A stretch of DNA of 36,933 nucleotides. Source: a virus. Lineage: Duplodnaviria > Caudoviricetes. Position numbers and translations under genes: made by a program. The DNA lies in the IMG/VR virus record IMGVR_UViG_3300032254_000019, positions 1 through 36,933 of that record; one strand, 5' to 3'. Shown here piece after piece: positions 1 through 36,933 of the stretch (within the stretch, counting starts at the first letter, position 1; each line of letters begins with the position of its first letter). The notes below the pieces were generated by a model. It was given only the letters and a program-made list of their open reading frames with translations. It was not told the origin of the DNA and made no database searches.

Positions 1-71
1 TCTCTATCTATATTGGCAACGGCTGGGCGAATCAGCGCCGGATACGTAACCGGCATTATTTTAAGGAGACG

Positions 72-293
72 ATGATGAAAGACTATGAGTATTTGAGAAA
101 TTATGCTGCATCATTGCATGGGCAGCCTAAGCGCGTTGAGCGACTTGAATTGATTGCTGACCGGCTGAAAAAACTAGAATCAGCATATTGCAAGTTGACC
201 AACTGCGAGTATTACCAAGACGGGCCGAATTTAGCCGGTGTGTACTGCCCGTCTGAATTGCTGTATGAATTTGATGATTTGTTTGACGCATAA
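72..293 (+). CDS. Hypothetical protein (cassette-like ORF)
   Basis: AAGGAG RBS upstream; TAA stop lies in core GCATAAC (288-294). Confidence 0.8.
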   Translation: MMKDYEYLRNYAASLHGQPKRVERLELIADRLKKLESAYCKLTNCEYYQDGPNLAGVYCPSELLYEFDDLFDA

Positions 294-416
294 CGATAAT
301 GGTAACTTGCCGCCGAATTGAAACCGATGAACTTAGGGAAACAAAAATGCCAAACGAAACTACAGAAATAGAAAACCGCGCCGAGGTAGGCGGTCGAGTT
401 GACCCGCTTGTTAGCG
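288..416 (-). repeat. attC-like site 1 (129 bp)
   Basis: Minus strand reads CGCTAAC-AAGCG-GGTCAACT...AGTTACC-ATTATC-GTTATGC: canonical R''-5bp-L''...L'-6bp-R' layout with extra C and CGAC bulge. Confidence 0.9.
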
Positions 417-631
417 GTGGCCGGTTGAGTAGTGCTTATAACGCTGCAAATCTTCAGGTTTGTGCTTGCTACGGTGCTATATCGCATATAGACGCAGCAG
501 AAAAAAGGTTGCGCTCTACACAGCGCGCACCTTTATGGCTTCTCAAACATCTTGACGAGGCGCGCAGAAAAATGAATACGACAATTTTGCCTGAATTGAT
601 ACGCAAACGCGATGAGTTATATTACCGCTAA
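347..631 (+). CDS. Hypothetical cassette protein (start inside attC1; ORF track start 299)
   Basis: ATG at 347 after AGGGAA; reads through the right arm of the site; TAA in core CGCTAAC. Confidence 0.75.
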   Translation: MPNETTEIENRAEVGGRVDPLVSGGRLSSAYNAANLQVCACYGAISHIDAAEKRLRSTQRAPLWLLKHLDEARRKMNTTILPELIRKRDELYYR

Positions 632-706
632 CCAAAAGCTAACAGGAGAGGAACGAAATGAGTGAAACGAATGTAGAGACGAGTCCCGTTGAGCGCCTTG
701 TTATGC
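626..706 (-). repeat. attC-like site 2 (81 bp)
   Basis: + strand CGCTAAC..GCTAACAGG....GAGTCCCGTTGAGC-GCCTT-GTTATGC. Confidence 0.85.
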
Positions 707-915
707 GTGATGGGTATTGCTGCGACTGTAACCACAACCCTGCTGAGACGATTGTTGAGGCAGCAAAAAGGCCGGGACACAAATGCAATGGATGCTGGTT
801 CACAGACCGCAAGCCGAACTGGGCACCGAAGGACGGAAAACAATATTACACAGAAGACGGTACGCTGATGAATTCGGACGGTAGCCGAAGTATTTTTGAC
901 GATGTGGACGCCTAA
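658..915 (+). CDS. Hypothetical Cys-rich cassette protein
   Basis: AGGAGAGG RBS and ATG inside attC2; CCDC and CNGC motifs; TAA in core GCCTAAC. Confidence 0.8.
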   Translation: MSETNVETSPVERLVMRDGYCCDCNHNPAETIVEAAKRPGHKCNGCWFTDRKPNWAPKDGKQYYTEDGTLMNSDGSRSIFDDVDA

Positions 916-1011
916 CGCTAGAACTCAGGCGACCAGAACCGCCTGCGATGAACTTTAAATTTAACTATGAGGCCGATGCGGTTCTGGGTCGGCTGGAGTG
1001 ATTTGTTATGC
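910..1011 (-). repeat. attC-like site 3 (102 bp)
   Basis: GCCTAAC-GCTAGA-ACTCAGGCGACCAGAACCGC ... GCGGTTCTGGGTCGGCTGGAGT-GATTT-GTTATGC; long stem with extra bases on the right arm. Confidence 0.9.
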
Positions 1012-1274
1012 GTATCTCAATTAGAAAAAACACATGCGATAGCGCGATTGGCGAGGCGACAGTCAACGCGCCTGGAGCAAATATAACGATTGATTATGAT
1101 CGCGACGATTTGGCACATGAGCTTGTAAATGCGTACAGAGACCTATTTGATAATACCGATGATTGGGTGGCTCACCTAAGTATGTATATTGATTCTAGCG
1201 AAAAGGCACAGCTCAGGCCGATGCTTTTGGACGAGGACGGAAACAGAAGCATCTTTGACGATGTTGACGCATAA
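1008..1274 (+). CDS. Hypothetical cassette protein
   Basis: ATG is within core GTTATGC; GGAG RBS (995-998) is within the L box; TAA in core GCATAAC. Confidence 0.8.
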   Translation: MRISIRKNTCDSAIGEATVNAPGANITIDYDRDDLAHELVNAYRDLFDNTDDWVAHLSMYIDSSEKAQLRPMLLDEDGNRSIFDDVDA

Positions 1275-1393
1275 CGTCACAAATTACCGGCAATGTGCAA
1301 CTGGGAGCTTGCCGAATTGGGTGAATTTTAACTTAACTGCCAACACAAACAAACACTGCGGCACATTGTCCGAGTAGATTTGTTTTGTTGGGC
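1269..1393 (-). repeat. attC-like site 4 (125 bp)
   Basis: GCATAAC..AATTACCGGCAATGTGC ... GCACATTGTCCGAGTAGATT..GTTGGGC. Confidence 0.85.
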
Positions 1394-1412
1394 GGGCTAC
1401 GGAGTGAATGAA

Positions 1413-1628
1413 GTGAGTAACCTACAAAGAGCTAAAAAATGCGTCACGCATCACCATGCCTGCGATTGCAGAGAATACAAATTTAATGAGATGGAGAGTG
1501 CGCTTAAGGTAATAGCAACATGGGCATCGTGCTCAAACATGGATCGGAAGCCACATGCCAAGCAAATGCTGGATATTGAACTGAAAGCAATGGCTGCTTT
1601 GAATGCCTTAAACGGTATTGACGCCTAA
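1413..1628 (+). CDS. Hypothetical cassette protein with Cys/His cluster (ORF track start 1380)
   Basis: GGAG at 1401 then GTG 1413; CVTHHHACDC motif; TAA in core GCCTAAC. Confidence 0.75.
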   Translation: MSNLQRAKKCVTHHHACDCREYKFNEMESALKVIATWASCSNMDRKPHAKQMLDIELKAMAALNALNGIDA

Positions 1629-1682
1629 CCCCGCGATAAAACGCGGAGCGTAGCGGAGTCGGATTTAATTGCATTGTTAGCC
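1623..1682 (-). repeat. attC-like site 5 (60 bp)
   Basis: GCCTAAC...GGAGCGTAGCGGAGTCGGATTTAATT-GCATT-GTTAGCC; length of a classical 59-base element. Confidence 0.85.
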
Positions 1683-1699
1683 GTATTTTGGAGATGATT

Positions 1700-2008
1700 A
1701 TGGATTACTGGGAAGAAACAATTTCAGAAGCATTTGAAGACGCTGGAATTGCTGCGACAAAAGAACAGATACAAACTGTCGCTAGTTGGGTTGAGGGTGC
1801 TCATGACAACTACGGAATGGCTCACGGATACGATGCAATACCAAGCCACGTAAACAGCGAGATCGAGCAGATTAAAGCACGTCATGCTGCTGAGATTGCA
1901 GAACTACAAAAGCAGGTAAATTGCTACAGAGATAGCGTTGCGTTACGTAGAGGCGTGAAGCGGGAAGATGTTTACCTCGATAGCAATGGCTGCGTTATGT
2001 ACGGCTAA
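1700..2008 (+). CDS. Hypothetical cassette protein with coiled-coil segment (ORF track start 1688)
   Basis: GGAG at 1690, ATG 1700; TAA in core GGCTAAC. Confidence 0.85.
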   Translation: MDYWEETISEAFEDAGIAATKEQIQTVASWVEGAHDNYGMAHGYDAIPSHVNSEIEQIKARHAAEIAELQKQVNCYRDSVALRRGVKREDVYLDSNGCVMYG

Positions 2009-2052
2009 CCCCGGAGCTTAATTGCTCCGTCAATTACAGCGCCTTGTTATGG
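2003..2052 (-). repeat. attC-like site 6 (50 bp, very short)
   Basis: GGCTAAC-CCCGGA-GCTTAATTGC-TCC-GTCAATTACAGC-GCCTT-GTTATGG. Confidence 0.8.
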
Positions 2053-2069
2053 CGCGTGGAGATGAGAAA

Positions 2070-2366
2070 ATGAAGTGTGAAATCTGCGATAAACCAATAG
2101 GAGGCGACCACATTTCTCAGGAGACCAAGGTCCGTTTGTGGGACAAGCTCGCAAAACGGCACACCGAATACCACCGTGGCTGCTGGAATGAATACGCTGC
2201 CGGCATAACATCTGAGCCTGAGCGTTTGTGGCGTGAGCGTCTAGAGCTAGCAAAAAGCAAGATGGCGGACTGCCACAAAGACGACAAAAAACACTGGCGC
2301 GCATGTGTTGCCGAAGCGAAACAGAGAATTAAGGAAATTGGAAATGGGCATACAAGTACATATTGA
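2070..2366 (+). CDS. Hypothetical protein, possible Zn-binding (CxxC...HxxC) (ORF track start 2022)
   Basis: GGAG then ATG 2070, MKCEICDKPI...YHRGC; first of two ORFs in one cassette. Confidence 0.8.
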   Translation: MKCEICDKPIGGDHISQETKVRLWDKLAKRHTEYHRGCWNEYAAGITSEPERLWRERLELAKSKMADCHKDDKKHWRACVAEAKQRIKEIGNGHTSTY

Positions 2367-2571
2367 TGACACCTACAACGTAACGCTAAACGATCTGTTG
2401 GGGCTTGTGCCAAACAGCAAAGCGGCTAAACGATATGCCGAAATAATGGATGATTTAGGACGGTTGCAGAAGATCGTTTCTGGCGCCGCAGAATGGGCTG
2501 ACGCGGAGCACAGGAGCAGGATGGACCCTGAGTGGCTAGTAGATGCTCGTAATTACTTGGGCACGGACTGA
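2344..2571 (+). CDS. Hypothetical protein (second ORF of two-gene cassette)
   Basis: ATG 2344 after AAGGA, overlaps the previous ORF; TGA abuts core GCCATAAC. Confidence 0.7.
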   Translation: MGIQVHIDDTYNVTLNDLLGLVPNSKAAKRYAEIMDDLGRLQKIVSGAAEWADAEHRSRMDPEWLVDARNYLGTD

Positions 2572-2572
2572 G

Positions 2573-2663
2573 CCATAACCCATTTAGCACAGGCGACGAA
2601 CGCAGTGAGGAGTCCAGTGGAATGAACGAAGTGAGTGAAACGAGTGTGCCTGAAGTATTTGAT
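2573..2663 (-). repeat. Degenerate attC-like site 7
   Basis: CCATAAC-CCATTT-AGCACAGG..GAGTCC.. and loop GAACGAAGTGAGTGAAACGA nearly identical to site 2, but no right-hand GTT core. Confidence 0.55.
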
Positions 2664-2735
2664 GATGAAAATGCCGCTAGGGCGAAGAAGAATATTGAAC
2701 GATTGTTTCAACACCGCAGCCAGGAGGCAACATAA
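2622..2735 (+). CDS. Putative 37-aa peptide MNEVSETSVPEVFDDENAARAKKNIERLFQHRSQEAT
   Basis: Manual translation; GAGGAG upstream; TAA falls in core ACATAAC like neighbouring ORFs. Confidence 0.5.
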   Translation: MNEVSETSVPEVFDDENAARAKKNIERLFQHRSQEAT

Positions 2736-2854
2736 CCTTTGGGTAACGCGCCGCATTAAATAAACAAACATTGGAGTAACTGAGATGACGAACGAAACTA
2801 CAAAACCAGAAGCAAGCACAGAGTTAGGCGGTCGCGTTGACTCAGCTGTTAGTG
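2730..2854 (-). repeat. attC-like site 8 (125 bp), paralogous to site 1
   Basis: ACATAAC..GGTAACGCGCCGC ... GCGGTCGCGTTGACT-CAGCT-GTTAGTG. Confidence 0.88.
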
Positions 2855-3042
2855 TGCCTGAACTTTTCAGGGTGCGCTGGTGGATTCAGGACACTATGGA
2901 AAGTGGTCATTGGGAAGTGTCTGGCTTGGTTGGCCTAAAAACTGCCCAGCAGTATGTGCGCTGCGGTTATTACGAGCAGGCACAAATTGTACTAGATGAA
3001 GATGGTTGGCCGATATACGAGGGTGATTGGTGGGCACACTAA
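2785..3042 (+). CDS. Hypothetical cassette protein
   Basis: GGAG and ATG inside attC8; TAA in core CACTAAC. Confidence 0.8.
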   Translation: MTNETTKPEASTELGGRVDSAVSVPELFRVRWWIQDTMESGHWEVSGLVGLKTAQQYVRCGYYEQAQIVLDEDGWPIYEGDWWAH

Positions 3043-3085
3043 CACTGGGCTATACACACCTGATAAGGTAGGGAGCGTAAAAACA

Positions 3086-3391
3086 ATGACTTATAGAGCA
3101 AATAAAAAAGCACGAAAACTGTGGTCATTACAAGCAAACGCCGCAAAAGAAAGAAAAAGACTCGCTGAAAAGGATCAGCATACTGACTTTGTAGATATTG
3201 ATCCTTACATAAAAATCACAATAGAACGCAGGCACACAAAAGAAGTCGCAATATTTGAGTGTCTTGAGGGCAATAGAATTGATAACTACAGCATCTATTG
3301 CAACGATGAGCACTTAGGGATTCATGGCATTACGTTTTTAATGAACCGCATCAGAAAGTCATTACCAAGGTTTAGACGGTTTGATAAATAA
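3086..3391 (+). CDS. Hypothetical basic protein (ORF track start 2996)
   Basis: GGGAG at 3071, ATG 3086; AT-rich; converges on the primase gene. Confidence 0.75.
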   Translation: MTYRANKKARKLWSLQANAAKERKRLAEKDQHTDFVDIDPYIKITIERRHTKEVAIFECLEGNRIDNYSIYCNDEHLGIHGITFLMNRIRKSLPRFRRFDK

Positions 3392-3406
3392 GCCGCTATG
3401 AACTAG

Positions 3407-5827
3407 TCACATAGCAGACTGTGGACCTTTAAGGCCTATCCCGATATAGTACATAGCTCCATCTGCCCGGCCTTTATTAAAACCTCTCTCAGACATTTTA
3501 CGGCCAAACAACGTTTGAGTCATAGGCTTCTCATTACGTTCCTTCTTCCACGATGAATATGTGTGATATAGAACTGACCCTGCAACCTTGACACTTGCTG
3601 GATCAATATCCATGTGCTTGGCAACTATGCAGTTATCCCCCATAAACCGCAGTAATTCGTCTGACTCATCCTGGTATGCGCGGGTAGCTGCTATAACAGA
3701 TTCAGGCTCACAAAGACCTGTTTTTTGCCACTCAAGGCACCCTTTAATTGCCCAGTTCAGAATCCCGGCTGACTCACTCTCAAGGGTTTTAATAAGGTCT
3801 TTATCACGTTTCTCTTCCGGGATTGTTACTTCAAACGGAATTAGTCTAAGTCTGCGCCACATTGCGTGATCTGTACCATAAACGGTCGGTTTGTGATTGG
3901 TTGACATCCATGGTTTGAACTTTGGCGCGTATGAGAAGAATTCACCAAATGGAAACCTGCCTTCTATCTTATCTTCACCTGTTGCAACCTTTATAAGCTC
4001 TTCCCGCAGCCTGCCTGATTCATTGGTCTCTGACATAAACAGTGCCCTGGCAGCTCGGAATCCAGCAAACCTGTAATTATCTTCAGCCGATGGTTTCGCA
4101 CCTATAAACGCTGCTGTGGACGTTGCCATACCCATATCGCCTAGCAACATAGCCATTAGCCGCATAAACGTAGATTTACCATTAGCGCCAGTGCCGTGCA
4201 TAATAAAGAATGCCTGCTCACCTGTTTTACCTGTGAGTGTGTACCCAACAGCGCGTTGAAGAAACTTAACTGTTTCAATGTCTCCGTCCATAATTTCTAA
4301 CATAAATTGTTCCCAACGTGGGCATGTAGCAGTGGCGTCAGCAACGACATGCGAGCGGGTAGTAATAAGATCCTCAGGCTCTGAGTTACGGAGCTTGCCG
4401 GTGCGTAAATCAACCACACCGTTTGAGACACCTAGTAGCCAGTCGTCACCATCAAGATCGCCAGTTGAGATTGAGATACCGGCGCACGACTGTGCGGCCT
4501 CGATGCAGCTCTTGGCACCACCGACAGCCTCGAGTCGCCTAACTGTCTTTAGCTGCGCATTAAGGGCTTTCTCATCCTTTCCGCAGCGGTCTCTTACTTC
4601 AAACTCCATACTCGGGACCATGGCCCATACTCTACGAATCATCTCACCTGATGTATCGAATACCCATCCTCGTGCTGGTGCGGCCTCGCCAGGTTTAGCA
4701 GTATTCCCAAACGTCGATTCCCGTGACCCGGATTCCCAAACAAGCCATTTCTGTTGCTCATGTATGAAGCGCATACAATTAGGAAATGAAGCTATTAACC
4801 GTTCAGCGTTACCTTTATCTGAAGATCTGAATTTCCCTTCAGGTATAACAATATCTTCGAAATCAGCCTTACCACTACTAATATCGTCCGATACAGGTAA
4901 AACTGGCTGGACACTAGTAGAGACCTTATTTACATTACGCGCAGCAATAAACTTAGGAATTGCAGGGAATATTTCTCTCTCAAGCGTCGCGTCATCTATT
5001 GGAATAGCGTTATTAGGGCATCGTTCTACATTTACACGTTTGATAGTGGCACGGATCATATCCTCGTCGAGTCCCTTTCCAACAAGATGGCCAACGTACT
5101 GTACTAGCGGTTGAGTGCGGTTGCCGGGTGCAAGTATATCAGGGAGGATAAAAGTGGAGTCCATGTCAAGGGAGATAGGGAGGCTGTGGGATACCTCACT
5201 TGAAGGGAGCATGGACTCCAAACCTGTAGCGACCTGATTACTATCGCCATTTAAAATCTTACCAGATTGTGCGGCTGATACAAGTGTGCGGCACGATATC
5301 TGAGGATGATTACTAATAGAACATTTTACAAGTGCCGGCGAATTGTATTTATGGTTAATAAATCCAGGGACTCTAAGTACCCGGTCAACATTAGTCATTG
5401 ACGGATCACAGCCAAAACGTTTAGCAAGAAGTGCCTGCGAGAGTTTGAACCCAGTTATTGACTCATCATTAACTCGCCATAGGCAGTGCCATCGACCCGG
5501 ACTTGATGTGGTTAGGATATGAGGTCTTGGCATAGCATCGCGGATAGGGCCAAGCGGCGCACCGTCAGTGTCGACGAACAAATAGCGCACATTAGAGATA
5601 TGTGCTTTACCACGGTCAGCCCCTTCATTGACCTGTACGAATATCCCAGCGCCACGTGCATTAAGATCTGATAACGTCTTACTATGCTGACTGAATGACC
5701 CAGTTAATACCCGTGCAAGTGGATCACGACCACCGGGTTTTTTATCGGAAAACGTTTGGAACACATAAAAATCGCTACTCGATATGGCGCTCAAAAATGA
5801 GTGGCTTAAACTGAGGTCGGTCCCCAT
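3407..5827 (-). CDS. Primase-helicase (RepB-like primase N-terminus, D5_N and P4-family SF3 helicase)
   Basis: LFVDTDG and SSPGRWHCLW primase motifs; NGVVDLRTG; Walker A GTGANGKST; TNHKP, WRRLRLIPF. Confidence 0.93.
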   Translation of the reverse strand: MGTDLSLSHSFLSAISSSDFYVFQTFSDKKPGGRDPLARVLTGSFSQHSKTLSDLNARGAGIFVQVNEGADRGKAHISNVRYLFVDTDGAPLGPIRDAMPRPHILTTSSPGRWHCLWRVNDESITGFKLSQALLAKRFGCDPSMTNVDRVLRVPGFINHKYNSPALVKCSISNHPQISCRTLVSAAQSGKILNGDSNQVATGLESMLPSSEVSHSLPISLDMDSTFILPDILAPGNRTQPLVQYVGHLVGKGLDEDMIRATIKRVNVERCPNNAIPIDDATLEREIFPAIPKFIAARNVNKVSTSVQPVLPVSDDISSGKADFEDIVIPEGKFRSSDKGNAERLIASFPNCMRFIHEQQKWLVWESGSRESTFGNTAKPGEAAPARGWVFDTSGEMIRRVWAMVPSMEFEVRDRCGKDEKALNAQLKTVRRLEAVGGAKSCIEAAQSCAGISISTGDLDGDDWLLGVSNGVVDLRTGKLRNSEPEDLITTRSHVVADATATCPRWEQFMLEIMDGDIETVKFLQRAVGYTLTGKTGEQAFFIMHGTGANGKSTFMRLMAMLLGDMGMATSTAAFIGAKPSAEDNYRFAGFRAARALFMSETNESGRLREELIKVATGEDKIEGRFPFGEFFSYAPKFKPWMSTNHKPTVYGTDHAMWRRLRLIPFEVTIPEEKRDKDLIKTLESESAGILNWAIKGCLEWQKTGLCEPESVIAATRAYQDESDELLRFMGDNCIVAKHMDIDPASVKVAGSVLYHTYSSWKKERNEKPMTQTLFGRKMSERGFNKGRADGAMYYIGIGLKGPQSAM

Positions 5828-6206: not shown

Positions 6207-6428
6207 ATGAATAAGGGAACATACTGGAAGAAGATGGCATTTCACAACCAAGGTGAGCCTATATGCGAAACACCTTATTTTGATGATGTGATCCAGTTAC
6301 TTGCAGATGAGCTTGAAACAGGCAGAGATCATAGTGTGCGCGTACTAGAGCTGCTGCGAATTGGTGCGTCAGAGTACATTGAACGCTGTATGAAGTTTGA
6401 AGGCATAGACCAGGACATATCAGAATAA
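6207..6428 (+). CDS. Hypothetical protein (ORF track start 6132)
   Basis: GGGAG RBS, ATG 6207; TAATG overlap with the polymerase gene. Confidence 0.75.
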   Translation: MNKGTYWKKMAFHNQGEPICETPYFDDVIQLLADELETGRDHSVRVLELLRIGASEYIERCMKFEGIDQDISE

Positions 6429-7534
6429 TGATTGGACTTGATCTTGAAACTGCCCCATGCGAAGGGCAGCCTCAGCCTTATGCACTTCAACCGTGGAGAG
6501 CTAGGGAGGGTACGGCGCATATAACGTCGTGTGCGATTGCTAAGTCATCGGGACAGGCTAAGACAACACCAGGCAGGTACAGCGACCTTAAACAGCTACT
6601 GATAGAGCTTGACGGTAAGTATGTAGCAACATGGAATGGATTATTTGACGTTGCGTGGCTACTTGCCTATGGGTTGGATGAGCATGTCAAAAAGATAAAG
6701 TGGGTTGATGCGATGTTGCTATGGAAATGGGTAGAAAATTCACAGTCCAAGGAGCATGCACCTGCGTGGTCGTTGATGGACGGCGCTAAAAGGTGGCTAA
6801 AAGACTGGCCCCATCTGGATAGGTTTAAGGATATGAAGTCAAAGGAAGTAGCCGCCGGGGAAGACGACAAGTATTGGGAGATGAGAGGCAAACTTGATGC
6901 GCTTGTGACTGTCAAGATCGCTGAGATCCTTCAACATAAATTAACTGACCAGCAGCGTAAATCAGTGTTAATCGAAGCGGCGTGCATTATACCGGCAGCA
7001 AAAGCGTGGATAGGCGGGATAAACATTGATACACATAAATGTAAGGCAATAGCGCCAATAATTACTGACGAAATGAGATCTATAGAGGTTAAGTTGGGCG
7101 TATGCGACAGTACATCAGACAAAGACCAGTGGAAGCCATCAACGCTATTATCATCACCTAAGAAGTTAAGCGTATTATTATATACTACTTGGGGTCTGCC
7201 ATGCTCAGTATTTAGTGATAAAACTGGCGCGCCGAGTTCAAATAAAACCGCACTGACATACCTTGCCGATACCGATCCAAGAGTACTCGATATTCTAAGG
7301 TGGCGCGAGCTGAACACTCAGTATACCAAATTTGTCAAAGGGATCATTGCGACATCAGAGTATATCAATGACGATATAGCATACCCGTCACCGAAAATAT
7401 TCTCGACATATACAGGCAGGTTCACGTATGCAAGTAGGAGTGGAAAGAAAGGCGAGAACTACAAAGCTAAGGTAGGTATACCCATCCACCAATTCCCTCG
7501 GAATAAAACCTTGAGAAAGTTAATTGGAAGTTGA
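6428..7534 (+). CDS. Family A DNA polymerase, N-terminal part (3'-5' exonuclease and thumb)
   Basis: ExoI DLET, ExoII WNGLFD, SSPKKL..LLY...GLP, TGAPSS, TYTGRFT, HQFPR. Confidence 0.9.
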   Translation: MIGLDLETAPCEGQPQPYALQPWRAREGTAHITSCAIAKSSGQAKTTPGRYSDLKQLLIELDGKYVATWNGLFDVAWLLAYGLDEHVKKIKWVDAMLLWKWVENSQSKEHAPAWSLMDGAKRWLKDWPHLDRFKDMKSKEVAAGEDDKYWEMRGKLDALVTVKIAEILQHKLTDQQRKSVLIEAACIIPAAKAWIGGINIDTHKCKAIAPIITDEMRSIEVKLGVCDSTSDKDQWKPSTLLSSPKKLSVLLYTTWGLPCSVFSDKTGAPSSNKTALTYLADTDPRVLDILRWRELNTQYTKFVKGIIATSEYINDDIAYPSPKIFSTYTGRFTYASRSGKKGENYKAKVGIPIHQFPRNKTLRKLIGS

Positions 7535-7730
7535 CGAGCGAACCATGACTAAATTAGCAGAAATTGAATGCAGGATCTTACGGAAAACATACTGCGCATA
7601 CCTTATAGACAATGGGAAATTCAAAATGTGGTTATCAAAGTCACACATAATTGACGAGACAAACTACCTTAACGGCGCTGTACTCACGATCCCTATGTGG
7701 TTAGCACTGAATGAGGGACTGGTGAAGTGA
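7524..7730 (+). CDS. Small hypothetical protein between polymerase halves (alternative ATG 7545)
   Basis: AYLIDNG..MWLSKSHI...LTIPMWLA..EGL resembles a recurrent small phage beta-rich protein. Confidence 0.7.
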   Translation: MEVDERTMTKLAEIECRILRKTYCAYLIDNGKFKMWLSKSHIIDETNYLNGAVLTIPMWLALNEGLVK

Positions 7731-7879
7731 ACGTAATGACGGCAATATGCCTTGCAGGGTCGTTTTTGAGCCTGGTAGGCGCACTACAGGCATACAATAC
7801 TGGACTAAACTATTATCCGTGGTTAATAGCATCTATATGGGCGGGTATAGCAGCATTAGGAAGTACCAATGGGAGATAA
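7727..7879 (+). CDS. Putative 50-aa two-helix membrane protein
   Basis: Manual translation MNVMTAICLAGSFLSLVGALQAYNTGLNYYPWLIASIWAGIAALGSTNGR; GTGA overlap with the upstream stop. Confidence 0.6.
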   Translation: MNVMTAICLAGSFLSLVGALQAYNTGLNYYPWLIASIWAGIAALGSTNGR

Positions 7880-8690
7880 GTTACTTGTTGAGTTCGATGC
7901 CGCGGGGCAGGAAATGCGGATCATGGCCGATTATTCACAAGATCCGGCATTACTTAAAATCTTTAATTCTAAATCCCCCTTTGATGATGTCCATTCCTAT
8001 ACTGGATCAAAGATTGCCGGAATGACGTTTGAAAACTTCCTGGAGGCTAAGGCAGCAGGGAATAAAAGAGTAGTTGGAGAGCACGGGCTGAGACACATGG
8101 GGAAATTTTGCAATTTGTCCGGCCTCTATAGAGTAGGTGTCAAGAAGCAAAGAATAAATGCTCGAGTTCAGTATGGCATTGACAAGGATTATATGACGAT
8201 TAGTAGCTGGCAAGACACGTTCCACCGTGCCTATCCAGGTATCAAACGATACTGGGCTGCTGCGATAGCTACCGCTAAAGATCGTGGGTATGCTGAGACT
8301 CGTGCCGGACGCAGATTCTATATTACTGATTGGAATATCCCGGATAGGGCCTGGGGTTGTGAAAGCTCTGCCATTAATTTCCCGATTCAAGGTACAGGTG
8401 CGGATATGAAGGAGCTGGCTATCGCAGTAATATCTAAAAAGTTCCCTAAATTTGAATTCGCATGGGATCTACATGATGGCGAATTTGGATATATCGAATC
8501 GAAACATATCAATTCTAATATGCAGATAATATACGACATTAGAGAGACACTTGACAATCTACCGTACAAAGAAGCATGGGGATGGGAGCCAACTGTGCCC
8601 ATAACATGGGATGCCGCAGTAGGTAAAACGTGGGGTGATATGAAAGAAGTAAACTGGGATGAAAAAGGATCACTTATAACAACATTATAA
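7869..8690 (+). CDS. Family A DNA polymerase, C-terminal catalytic part
   Basis: Motif A LVEFDAAGQEMR, motif B RHMGKFCNLSGLY, AINFPIQGTGAD, motif C DLHDG; AGGA RBS. Confidence 0.92.
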   Translation: MGDKLLVEFDAAGQEMRIMADYSQDPALLKIFNSKSPFDDVHSYTGSKIAGMTFENFLEAKAAGNKRVVGEHGLRHMGKFCNLSGLYRVGVKKQRINARVQYGIDKDYMTISSWQDTFHRAYPGIKRYWAAAIATAKDRGYAETRAGRRFYITDWNIPDRAWGCESSAINFPIQGTGADMKELAIAVISKKFPKFEFAWDLHDGEFGYIESKHINSNMQIIYDIRETLDNLPYKEAWGWEPTVPITWDAAVGKTWGDMKEVNWDEKGSLITTL

Positions 8691-13599: not shown

Positions 13600-13848
13600 A
13601 TGGATACAGACTATATATTAACTTTAAAGGTGGAGGCTGCCAGGAAGGCAGTCTCTACCGCTGGCGGGCAGACGGCGTTAGCTAGAAAACTAAGTGATCT
13701 GCTTAACGAAAGAATCTCAAATGTACGTGTAGCCAAATGGCTGGTCAACGGAATTCCACCTAGGATGGTGCTTCCAATTTCTGAGATAACGGGTATTAAC
13801 CCAAATGAACTCGACCCGAAACTTTACCCGAAACACATTTTGAGATAA
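13600..13848 (+). CDS. Cro/YdaS-like HTH protein
   Basis: AGGQTALARKL...VAKW...IPP...ITGI...ELDPKLY. Confidence 0.82.
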   Translation: MDTDYILTLKVEAARKAVSTAGGQTALARKLSDLLNERISNVRVAKWLVNGIPPRMVLPISEITGINPNELDPKLYPKHILR

Positions 13849-36202: not shown

Positions 36203-36933
36203 TTATAAATCAACCTTAAATGTTTTTACACGTACAATATTAAGCTTAAATGGTTTTACACGTACAATATTAAGCTTAAACTCAAGCGTATCGCCAATTA
36301 TTGTTACTTCTGGTGTGTAGTATGTAGTCCCATTGATTGCGGTGTTTAAAGTGATGTCGCCGTCAATATCAGCATTTAAAGTAAAATCAAGCGTCGAAAC
36401 AACCGCTATAGGTACAGGTATATCTCCACCAATGGTATTTATAGATGTATAAGTGACTTGGCTTGCTACACCTATGGGGATAGAGACCGATCCAGAAAGG
36501 TCAGCGTTAAGCGTATAGTCAGTCGTACCCGCTACGCTCACCGGGACGGTTACATCTCCGATAATTGCACCGCTTGATAGATAGCTCGTCGTACCCGCTA
36601 CGCTCACCGGGACGGTGACTGCCCCAGAAAGGTCAGCATTAAGCGTATAATTGGTCGTACCCGCTACGCTCACCGGGACGGTTATATCTCCAATAATCCC
36701 ACCGCTAGATAAGTAGCTGGTCGTACCCGCTACGCTCACCGGGACGGTGACTGCCCCAGAAAGGTCAGCATTAAGCGTATAATTGGTCGTACCCGCTACG
36801 CTCACCGGGACGGTTACATCTCCGATAATTGCACCGCTAGATAAGTAGCTTGTCGTACCCGCTACGCTCACCGGGACGGTGACTGCCCCAGAAAGGTCAG
36901 CGTTAAGCGTGTAATCGGTCGTACCCGCTACGC
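36203..36933 (-). CDS. Tandem-repeat beta-rich protein, 5' end outside window
   Basis: Frame open to the window edge; 22-aa repeats. Confidence 0.85.
   Translation of the reverse strand, partial: VAGTTDYTLNADLSGAVTVPVSVAGTTSYLSSGAIIGDVTVPVSVAGTTNYTLNADLSGAVTVPVSVAGTTSYLSSGGIIGDITVPVSVAGTTNYTLNADLSGAVTVPVSVAGTTSYLSSGAIIGDVTVPVSVAGTTDYTLNADLSGSVSIPIGVASQVTYTSINTIGGDIPVPIAVVSTLDFTLNADIDGDITLNTAINGTTYYTPEVTIIGDTLEFKLNIVRVKPFKLNIVRVKTFKVDL
36221..36280 (-). repeat. 30-bp tandem duplication (FKLNIVRVK x2)
   Basis: TG(T/G)TTTTACACGTACAATATTAAGCTTAAA twice. Confidence 0.9.
36490..36933 (-). repeat. Coding tandem repeat, 66-bp units of two alternating types (132-bp period)
   Basis: Recurring GTCGTACCCGCTACGCTCACCGGGACGGT; VTVPVSVAGTT+SYLSSGAIIGD alternates with VTVPVSVAGTT+NYTLNADLSGA. 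Confidence 0.95.

Follow-up and report, generated by a model that had tools for sequence, protein, structure and literature searches.

A probable phage attC cluster with cassettes arranged back to front and start codons inside the site loops

INTRODUCTION

Bacterial attC sites carry R and L boxes and recombine through a purine-rich bottom strand, on which an unpaired G16 and T23 lie on the arm opposite AAC; top-strand recombination occurs at low rates, and the gene lies on the top strand ahead of its site (Nivina 2016, PMC5027507). Recombination sites can also lend translation signals, as ORF-11, ORF-17 and ORF-18 of attI1 do, together with short open reading frames (ORFs) in attC that are reported to aid re-initiation in ordinary integrons; these act mainly through separate short peptides on the top strand (PMC8876359). 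Synthetic attC peptide linkers code for protein yet recombine, and shuffling of modules has been proposed for them (Nivina 2020, PMC7439510). Clusters of attC sites lacking integron integrases (CALINs) have been described in phages, as attC arrays among small genes with methyltransferase cargo in phages without intI, and IntI1 recombines their attC sites (Qi 2023, PMC9892861).

Here we describe an array of small genes occupying positions 1-3391 of a viral contig of 36,933 nucleotides (Duplodnaviria; Caudoviricetes; IMG/VR record IMGVR_UViG_3300032254_000019), the whole of which we call the window. Located on the + strand, the array runs off the contig at its left end. We read it, with a probability of roughly three in four, as a phage attC cluster whose cassettes are built back to front, as site, gene and TAA, with start codons inside the loops of the sites. 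The window resembles the published phage CALINs in its attC array among small genes, with at least two co-oriented attC sites and no intI nearby. Its inverted, start-bearing layout appears to be undescribed: the available text of PMC9892861 notes divergent sites in P12002L but contains neither ‘start codon’ nor ‘ribosom’ and describes no bottom-strand genes, and we found no description of inverted phage cassettes starting inside attC in the literature searched, figures, bioRxiv supplements and most subscription papers being outside its scope. Unlike the signals of attI1 and the short attC ORFs, the predicted starts are in frame and move with the gene; unlike the engineered linkers, the coding sites are natural and would encode N-termini.

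SITES AND THEIR ORIENTATION

RYYYAAC and GTTRRRY cores around an imperfect hairpin are clear at sites 1, 2, 3, 6 and 8; the cores are degenerate at sites 4 and 5, and the right core is absent at sites 7 and 9. In seven units 7-10 of 10 bases agree between the reverse complement of the GTT core and the TAAC core that follows, that is, the cassette ends are complementary, as a circular intermediate predicts. Our hairpin detector scores extra bases on the right versus the left arm and gives no bonus for base identity; in its strict form it found four sites in 1-3100, where 40 shuffles gave 0.025 on average. The extra-helical bases are G and T at sites 1, 2, 3 and 8, C and T at site 6 and non-canonical at sites 4 and 5, and stand at positions 16 and 23, matching attC aadA7, whose bottom strand sequence (supplement of PMC9892861) served as reference. 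The model with extra bases on the right arm, on the coding strand, outscored the left-arm model at all seven window sites scored, narrowly at site 5. Because the unpaired G and T of the hairpins lie on the coding strand, the genes are, as judged from sequence, on the attC sites' bottom strand, opposite to those of ordinary cassettes. In a canonical cassette a top-strand gene is followed by its own attC; here each gene stands behind its site (compare PMC5027507). The sites being attC read on the bottom strand, the box labels of the initial annotation are exchanged here.

Related viral loci were collected with a right-arm pattern blind to gene strand. Before counting, L001, L054, L055 and L182 were dropped as copies of the L185 array (the set of such copies dropped differs between the detector count and the start-signal count below), and L181 as identical to the window sequence. 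Across 179 loci the first extra base was G in 115, and the second T in 116, of 129 sites outside the search pattern, and a single strand was used in all 42 multi-site loci. Loci L002-L047, which share only the C-terminal motif of ORF3, yielded one site in 46 loci. By the coding strand of inter-site segments, viral loci were inverted in 102 cases and ordinary in 11, with 13 ties (n = 126), against 9 inverted, 34 ordinary and 1 tie (n = 44) in chromosomal arrays linked to intI. These 12 arrays remained from 20 chromosomal regions once 8 with fewer than two detected sites had been left out. Of 76 segments the first 50 were compared with PHROGs: 22 of 50 ORFs on the bottom strand matched, and none of 50 on the opposite strand. 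A Vibrio integron, used as a control, came out as ordinary, its genes lying opposite the bottom strand called by the detector.

In our own check of published phage arrays, PH101 and one MW202573 site are inverted and TJE1 is ordinary. IntI1 recombined two PH101 sites that had been cloned as ‘bottom strands’ (PMC9892861); both lie on the coding strand and so give published functional support for inverted phage sites, though they are short and without a leader. The N-terminus of the MW202573 methyltransferase was considered as a leader and rejected, since its annotated start is internal sequence. At that locus (L193:2640-2800) the methyltransferase frame continues upstream of the annotated start through the GTT core, and the true start may be a TTG with AAGGAG in the site's right arm. 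Loci L069 and L070 are ordinary by ORF coverage, yet two L070 ORFs match PHROGs on the bottom strand. L001:206-3000, an array as in L185, holds some 12 inverted cassettes; paralogues there of sites 2 and 3 stand ahead of other genes.

THE PROPOSED MOBILE UNIT

Crossover at TAA/C, ahead of the leader, would move leader and gene together, and the moving unit would therefore be site, gene and stop. Four homologous pairs in different contigs share site and body with borders at TAAC on both sides, and the downstream site is shared by no pair where it could be measured; these four pairs are biased by the seed pattern, and the contigs from sequencing runs are not. Among the 29 listed of 39 loose ends of near-identical contigs from seven runs, 16 lie no more than 3 bases from a TAAC core, 4 are at GTTA and the other 9 are elsewhere; three studies, none of them the possible source study of the window, account for 14 of the 16. 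Site 3 with ORF4 recurs in two studies, at 99-100% identity in four runs; it starts at 912-924, and in three of the four runs is followed by other sequence after 1275-1277. In five runs the half site is joined at 3039-3040 to differing upstream DNA. The alignment of related contigs to the window listed no joints. If the crossover is as proposed, turnover of accessory genes in these phages would be site-specific exchange at TAA/C rather than random illegitimate recombination.

EXCHANGE OF LEADERS

A second kind of breakpoint lies at the right core, where leaders, on the sequence comparisons that follow, change bodies at GTTRRRY. Fifty-seven site pairs (44 sites) have matching loops and unrelated bodies, and their identity ends at +6 of GTTRRRY. 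Protein P0005 has in common with ORF9 only leader 8, its body being unrelated, as the initial annotation expected of proteins sharing only this N-terminus; in one contig site 8, with 7 differences in 121 nt, meets the body of P0005 at 2851. The ORF3 body stands behind many different leaders, and leader and body identities are uncorrelated among its 12 homologues (rho 0.11 over 66 non-independent pairs). In a single case, P0011, the body of an L001 gene (87%) is joined to the leader of the next L001 gene (73%). Re-heading of genes is supported by these comparisons. Where identical sites are joined to unrelated bodies exactly at the core, they may record cassettes that formed recently; how cassettes form is an open problem in integron biology.

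Occasional recombination of the other (top) strand at the second core, G/TT, could swap leader partners. A top-strand cut would excise a circle of body plus next site, after which the body would follow the leader of the next site; the P0011 combination is the one expected of such a circle, and top-strand attC recombination is known at low rates (PMC5027507). We slightly favour this route over homologous recombination in the right arm or a step of cassette building.

That second possibility, in which the cassettes are inverted and leaders are swapped by homology or short homology in the right arm or as cassettes are built, still stands at a little under even odds. Right arms are highly conserved across site families, identity in L051/L052 and L115/L125 starts within the right arm, and one site with many genes is typical of chromosomal arrays too. 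Three features fit it poorly: same-loop identity ends directly after GTTRRRY, each body retains its own matching ends, and P0011, as one case, agrees with the circle prediction. The domain shuffling proposed in the initial annotation stands in so far as leaders change bodies over time, but the sites are inverted and routine crossover would keep leader with body.

PUTATIVE START CODONS INSIDE THE LOOPS

At long sites a ribosome-binding site and ATG in the free loop would start translation and add an N-terminal leader of 14-21 residues read through the right arm and core; at short sites the gene would keep its own start. The sample comprised 205 distinct sites in 80 loci, the loci being related and the starts predicted. 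Of the 111 long sites, 63 have a Shine-Dalgarno (SD) sequence with ATG in the loop; of the 94 short ones, 1 has. Beyond the core, 57 of these 64 starts remain open for 40 codons or more, compared with 18 and 25 when the frame is shifted; 41 use the frame with a GTT codon and 21 that with TTA, the third frame being almost never used. Where the loop of the site has no ATG, 97 of 141 genes have an inner start of their own; among leader genes the figure is 7 of 57 (p about 1e-13). An in-frame Met stands upstream in all 12 homologues of ORF3; in L186 and L188 it lies inside an intact attC of another family. In the 12 intI-linked chromosomal arrays, 1 of 40 long sites has a bottom-strand loop SD and ATG, and none stays open. 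These statistics support starts inside the loop and make translation from it likely.

The initial annotation held that the sites supply start signals, and the SD and ATG of the loops, the retained frame and the depletion of inner starts agree. The three leaders it gave, MPNETTEIENRAEVGGRVDPLVS (ATG 347), MSETNVETSPVERLVM (658) and MTNETTKPEASTELGGRVDSAVS (2785), are exactly as described and run in frame through the core, GTT being the Val codon at 410, 700 and 2848. Its ribosome-binding sites in the loops are present as AGGAG/GAGG before 658 and GGAG before 2785; before 347 there is only a weaker AGGGA, and site 1 also has an in-frame ATG at 299 without SD. At site 3, as it stated, GGAG comes from the right arm and ATG 1008 lies inside GTTATG. 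Likewise all seven ORF ends (293, 631, 915, 1274, 1628, 2008, 3042) fall within TAAC, and sites 1 and 8 are paralogous (72% alike over 82 nt). Ordinary cassettes too can have a stop in a TAAC core, though the other core.

It is improbable, in our judgement, that the loop ATGs are not true starts and that translation begins at or after the core, or that the upstream frames only couple translation, as short attC ORFs that aid re-initiation do (PMC8876359). This would suit the weak SD of site 1, the core ATG of ORF3 and the leaderless homologues P0004 (ORF9 body) and P0007 (ORF2 body), but not the frame retention at 57 of 64 sites, the depleted inner starts, the upstream Met in 12 of 12 ORF3 homologues or the conserved stretch of ORF9 ahead of its first internal ATG. 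Homologues lacking leaders, named initially as grounds for abandoning loop starts, do exist, in P0004, P0007 and most of the ORF5 family. If the starts do lie in the loops, each cassette would carry its own start and be expressed at any array position. Shared leaders would explain recurring N-terminal motifs on unrelated phage proteins that can mislead family clustering and start calls.

ORIGIN OF THE GENE BODIES

Just after the leader, 10 of 55 leader proteins match PHROGs (methyltransferases, Lar-like proteins and others). The ORF5 family is mostly leaderless, with a long N-terminus in 17 of 122 members. The bodies that can be placed are existing phage gene families, and the earlier suggestion that raw DNA captured between cores becomes a gene is unsupported. 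That the sites turn captured non-coding DNA into new genes is very improbable: start and stop are ready-made and 45 of the 55 leader proteins have no PHROG match, but the 10 that match belong to known families, the bodies of ORF3, ORF5 and ORF9 have conserved homologues, and no body was traced to non-coding DNA.

WEIGHT OF THE EVIDENCE

Several points count against inverted cassettes with loop starts. Most loci were chosen with a pattern taken from window sites, which over-samples the site families and the link to the upstream site and makes the loci non-independent. The longest-ORF strand measure, which we judged biased and replaced by the inter-site segment measure, gave 58 inverted, 22 ordinary and 46 ties for the viral loci; both are reported. 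The TJE1 array is ordinary. Whole-site folding energies are modest, and the minimum-energy fold of sites 1, 5, 6 and 8 pairs less than the full stem. The homologous pairs L058/L073, L115/L125 and L051/L052, full-length or partial, have a changed upstream site. Seven of the 57 leader genes do possess an inner start, site 1 has a weak SD, and the core ATG of ORF3 could be its start. No match to the tyrosine recombinase family (PF00589) was found in the window, which is about 61% complete, or in five related array phages, four of them at least 90% complete.

Ordinary polarity, which the wording of the initial annotation implies, with crossover at G/TT and each integration giving a body a new leader, is largely refuted and very improbable, since against the decoupling of leaders and bodies over longer times and the four listed loose ends at GTTA stand the extra bases on the coding strand, the travel of bodies with the upstream site, the lack of a shared downstream site in every pair where it could be measured, and 16 ends at TAAC versus 4 at GTTA.

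POSSIBLE INTEGRASE AND ARRAY ANCHOR

An integron integrase, likely borrowed from the host, would move the inverted cassette whole. An IntI supplied by the host is plausible: of 301 genomes sampled from one bacterial phylum, 68 carry IntI. Beside the array, where a complete integron would have intI, none was found in the window or in the five related records. The half site at 3040 sits where attI would be and takes varied neighbours, and may equally be a decayed attC. A promoter scan found 3 where 5.4 were expected, which is chance level.

A fuller scheme, which we hold tentatively and think rather unlikely as a whole, is that these phages run an integrase-free inverted integron on host IntI with two cuts, the bottom-strand cut delivering complete, self-starting cassettes to an attI-like anchor where the array ends and the top-strand cut giving genes new in-frame N-termini. 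If so, phage arrays would be a natural machine for re-heading genes, in which the first gaining of an attC site by a gene can be watched.

THE ARRAY SITE BY SITE

All parts are on the + strand, which is the bottom strand of the sites; detector scores are given for the right versus the left arm. ORF1 (72-293) is the first visible cassette gene, with its own SD, AAGGAG, and its stop within the TAAC of site 1; the array may extend past the contig end, and related contigs break at 294-297. Site 1 (287-416; 9.9 versus 3.5) has the extra G and T on its right arm and ATG 347 in its loop. ORF2 (347-631) has a putative 21-residue leader, a weak SD and a first in-frame ATG past the core that comes late; its homologue P0006 begins likewise, and P0007 is the body without leader. 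The loop of site 2 (625-706; 6.1 versus 2.7) holds SD and ATG 658, and a paralogue in L001 stands ahead of a different body. ORF3 (658-915) has a putative leader of 14 residues, a Cys-rich body and a second ATG in the core with a weak SD. At site 3 (909-1011; 8.2 versus 4.8) right arm and core provide the GGAG and ATG of ORF4 (1008-1274), which with it forms the unit 913-1275 that recurs in other surroundings at 99-100% identity. A C-terminal motif (876-917 and 1235-1276; 83% over 42 nt) is common to ORF3 and ORF4 and recurs in many unrelated viral proteins, possibly through 3'-end swaps.

Each of sites 4, 5 and 6 is followed by a gene with its own start. Site 4 (1268-1393; 5.6 versus 0.7) is degenerate and followed by ORF5 (1413-1628), with its own SD and GTG, from a widespread, mostly leaderless family. 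Site 5 (1622-1682; 4.3 versus 3.9) is short and degenerate, and near copies of the piece 1626-1679 precede other bodies in related contigs; ORF6 behind it (1700-2008) has its own SD and ATG and belongs to the phrog_12330 family. Site 6 (2002-2052; 7.1 versus 3.1) is short, with C and T as extra bases, and related pieces start at 2010. Two overlapping ORFs (2070-2366 and about 2344-2571) lie between site 6 and the TAAC at 2576, with a core match of 9 of 10.

Site 7 (2572-2735) is damaged and without a right arm, its loop start resembling that of site 2 (family D8, 92% over 24 nt); within it an ORF of 37 residues (2622-2735) ends in the TAAC at 2733. Site 8 (2729-2854; 9.7 versus 3.5), the paralogue of site 1, has GGAG and ATG 2785 in its loop, and a copy stands ahead of another body in a related contig. 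ORF9 (2785-3042) has a putative 21-residue leader and a body in which the conserved RVRWW stretch comes ahead of the first internal ATG. The half site (3036-3085), TAAC and left arm without the right core, closes the array of sites as the candidate attI-like anchor or decayed attC. ORF10 (3086-3391), the final array gene, is convergent with the primase gene.

OTHER FEATURES OF THE WINDOW

Searches gave no Rfam match within 1-3500, no Pfam match for array ORFs, no blastn match among 50,697 annotated phages (hence no cultured relative), no ORF2 relative among 12 candidates from viral contigs, and no match of the window terminase in four array phages, a comparison without positive control. ORF6 was the only array ORF with a PHROG match. 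The exact patterns of sites 2 and 3 found one contig each, and no RNA datasets were listed among the sequencing runs carrying related sequence.

The window is a single viral contig that encodes siphovirus-type head and tail genes, DNA polymerase, helicase and primase. The DNA polymerase (phrog_17; 6428-8690) is split over two ORFs, 6428-7534 and 7869-8690, between which lie the small ORFs 7524-7730 (phrog_8389) and 7727-7879, with no attC site detected there. A small repressor-like gene (13600-13845; phrog_35, Pfam YdaS) closes the replication genes. Towards the right end there are a 30-bp duplication (36215-36280) and a 66/132-bp tandem repeat (36492-36933) within a minus-strand gene truncated by the contig end.

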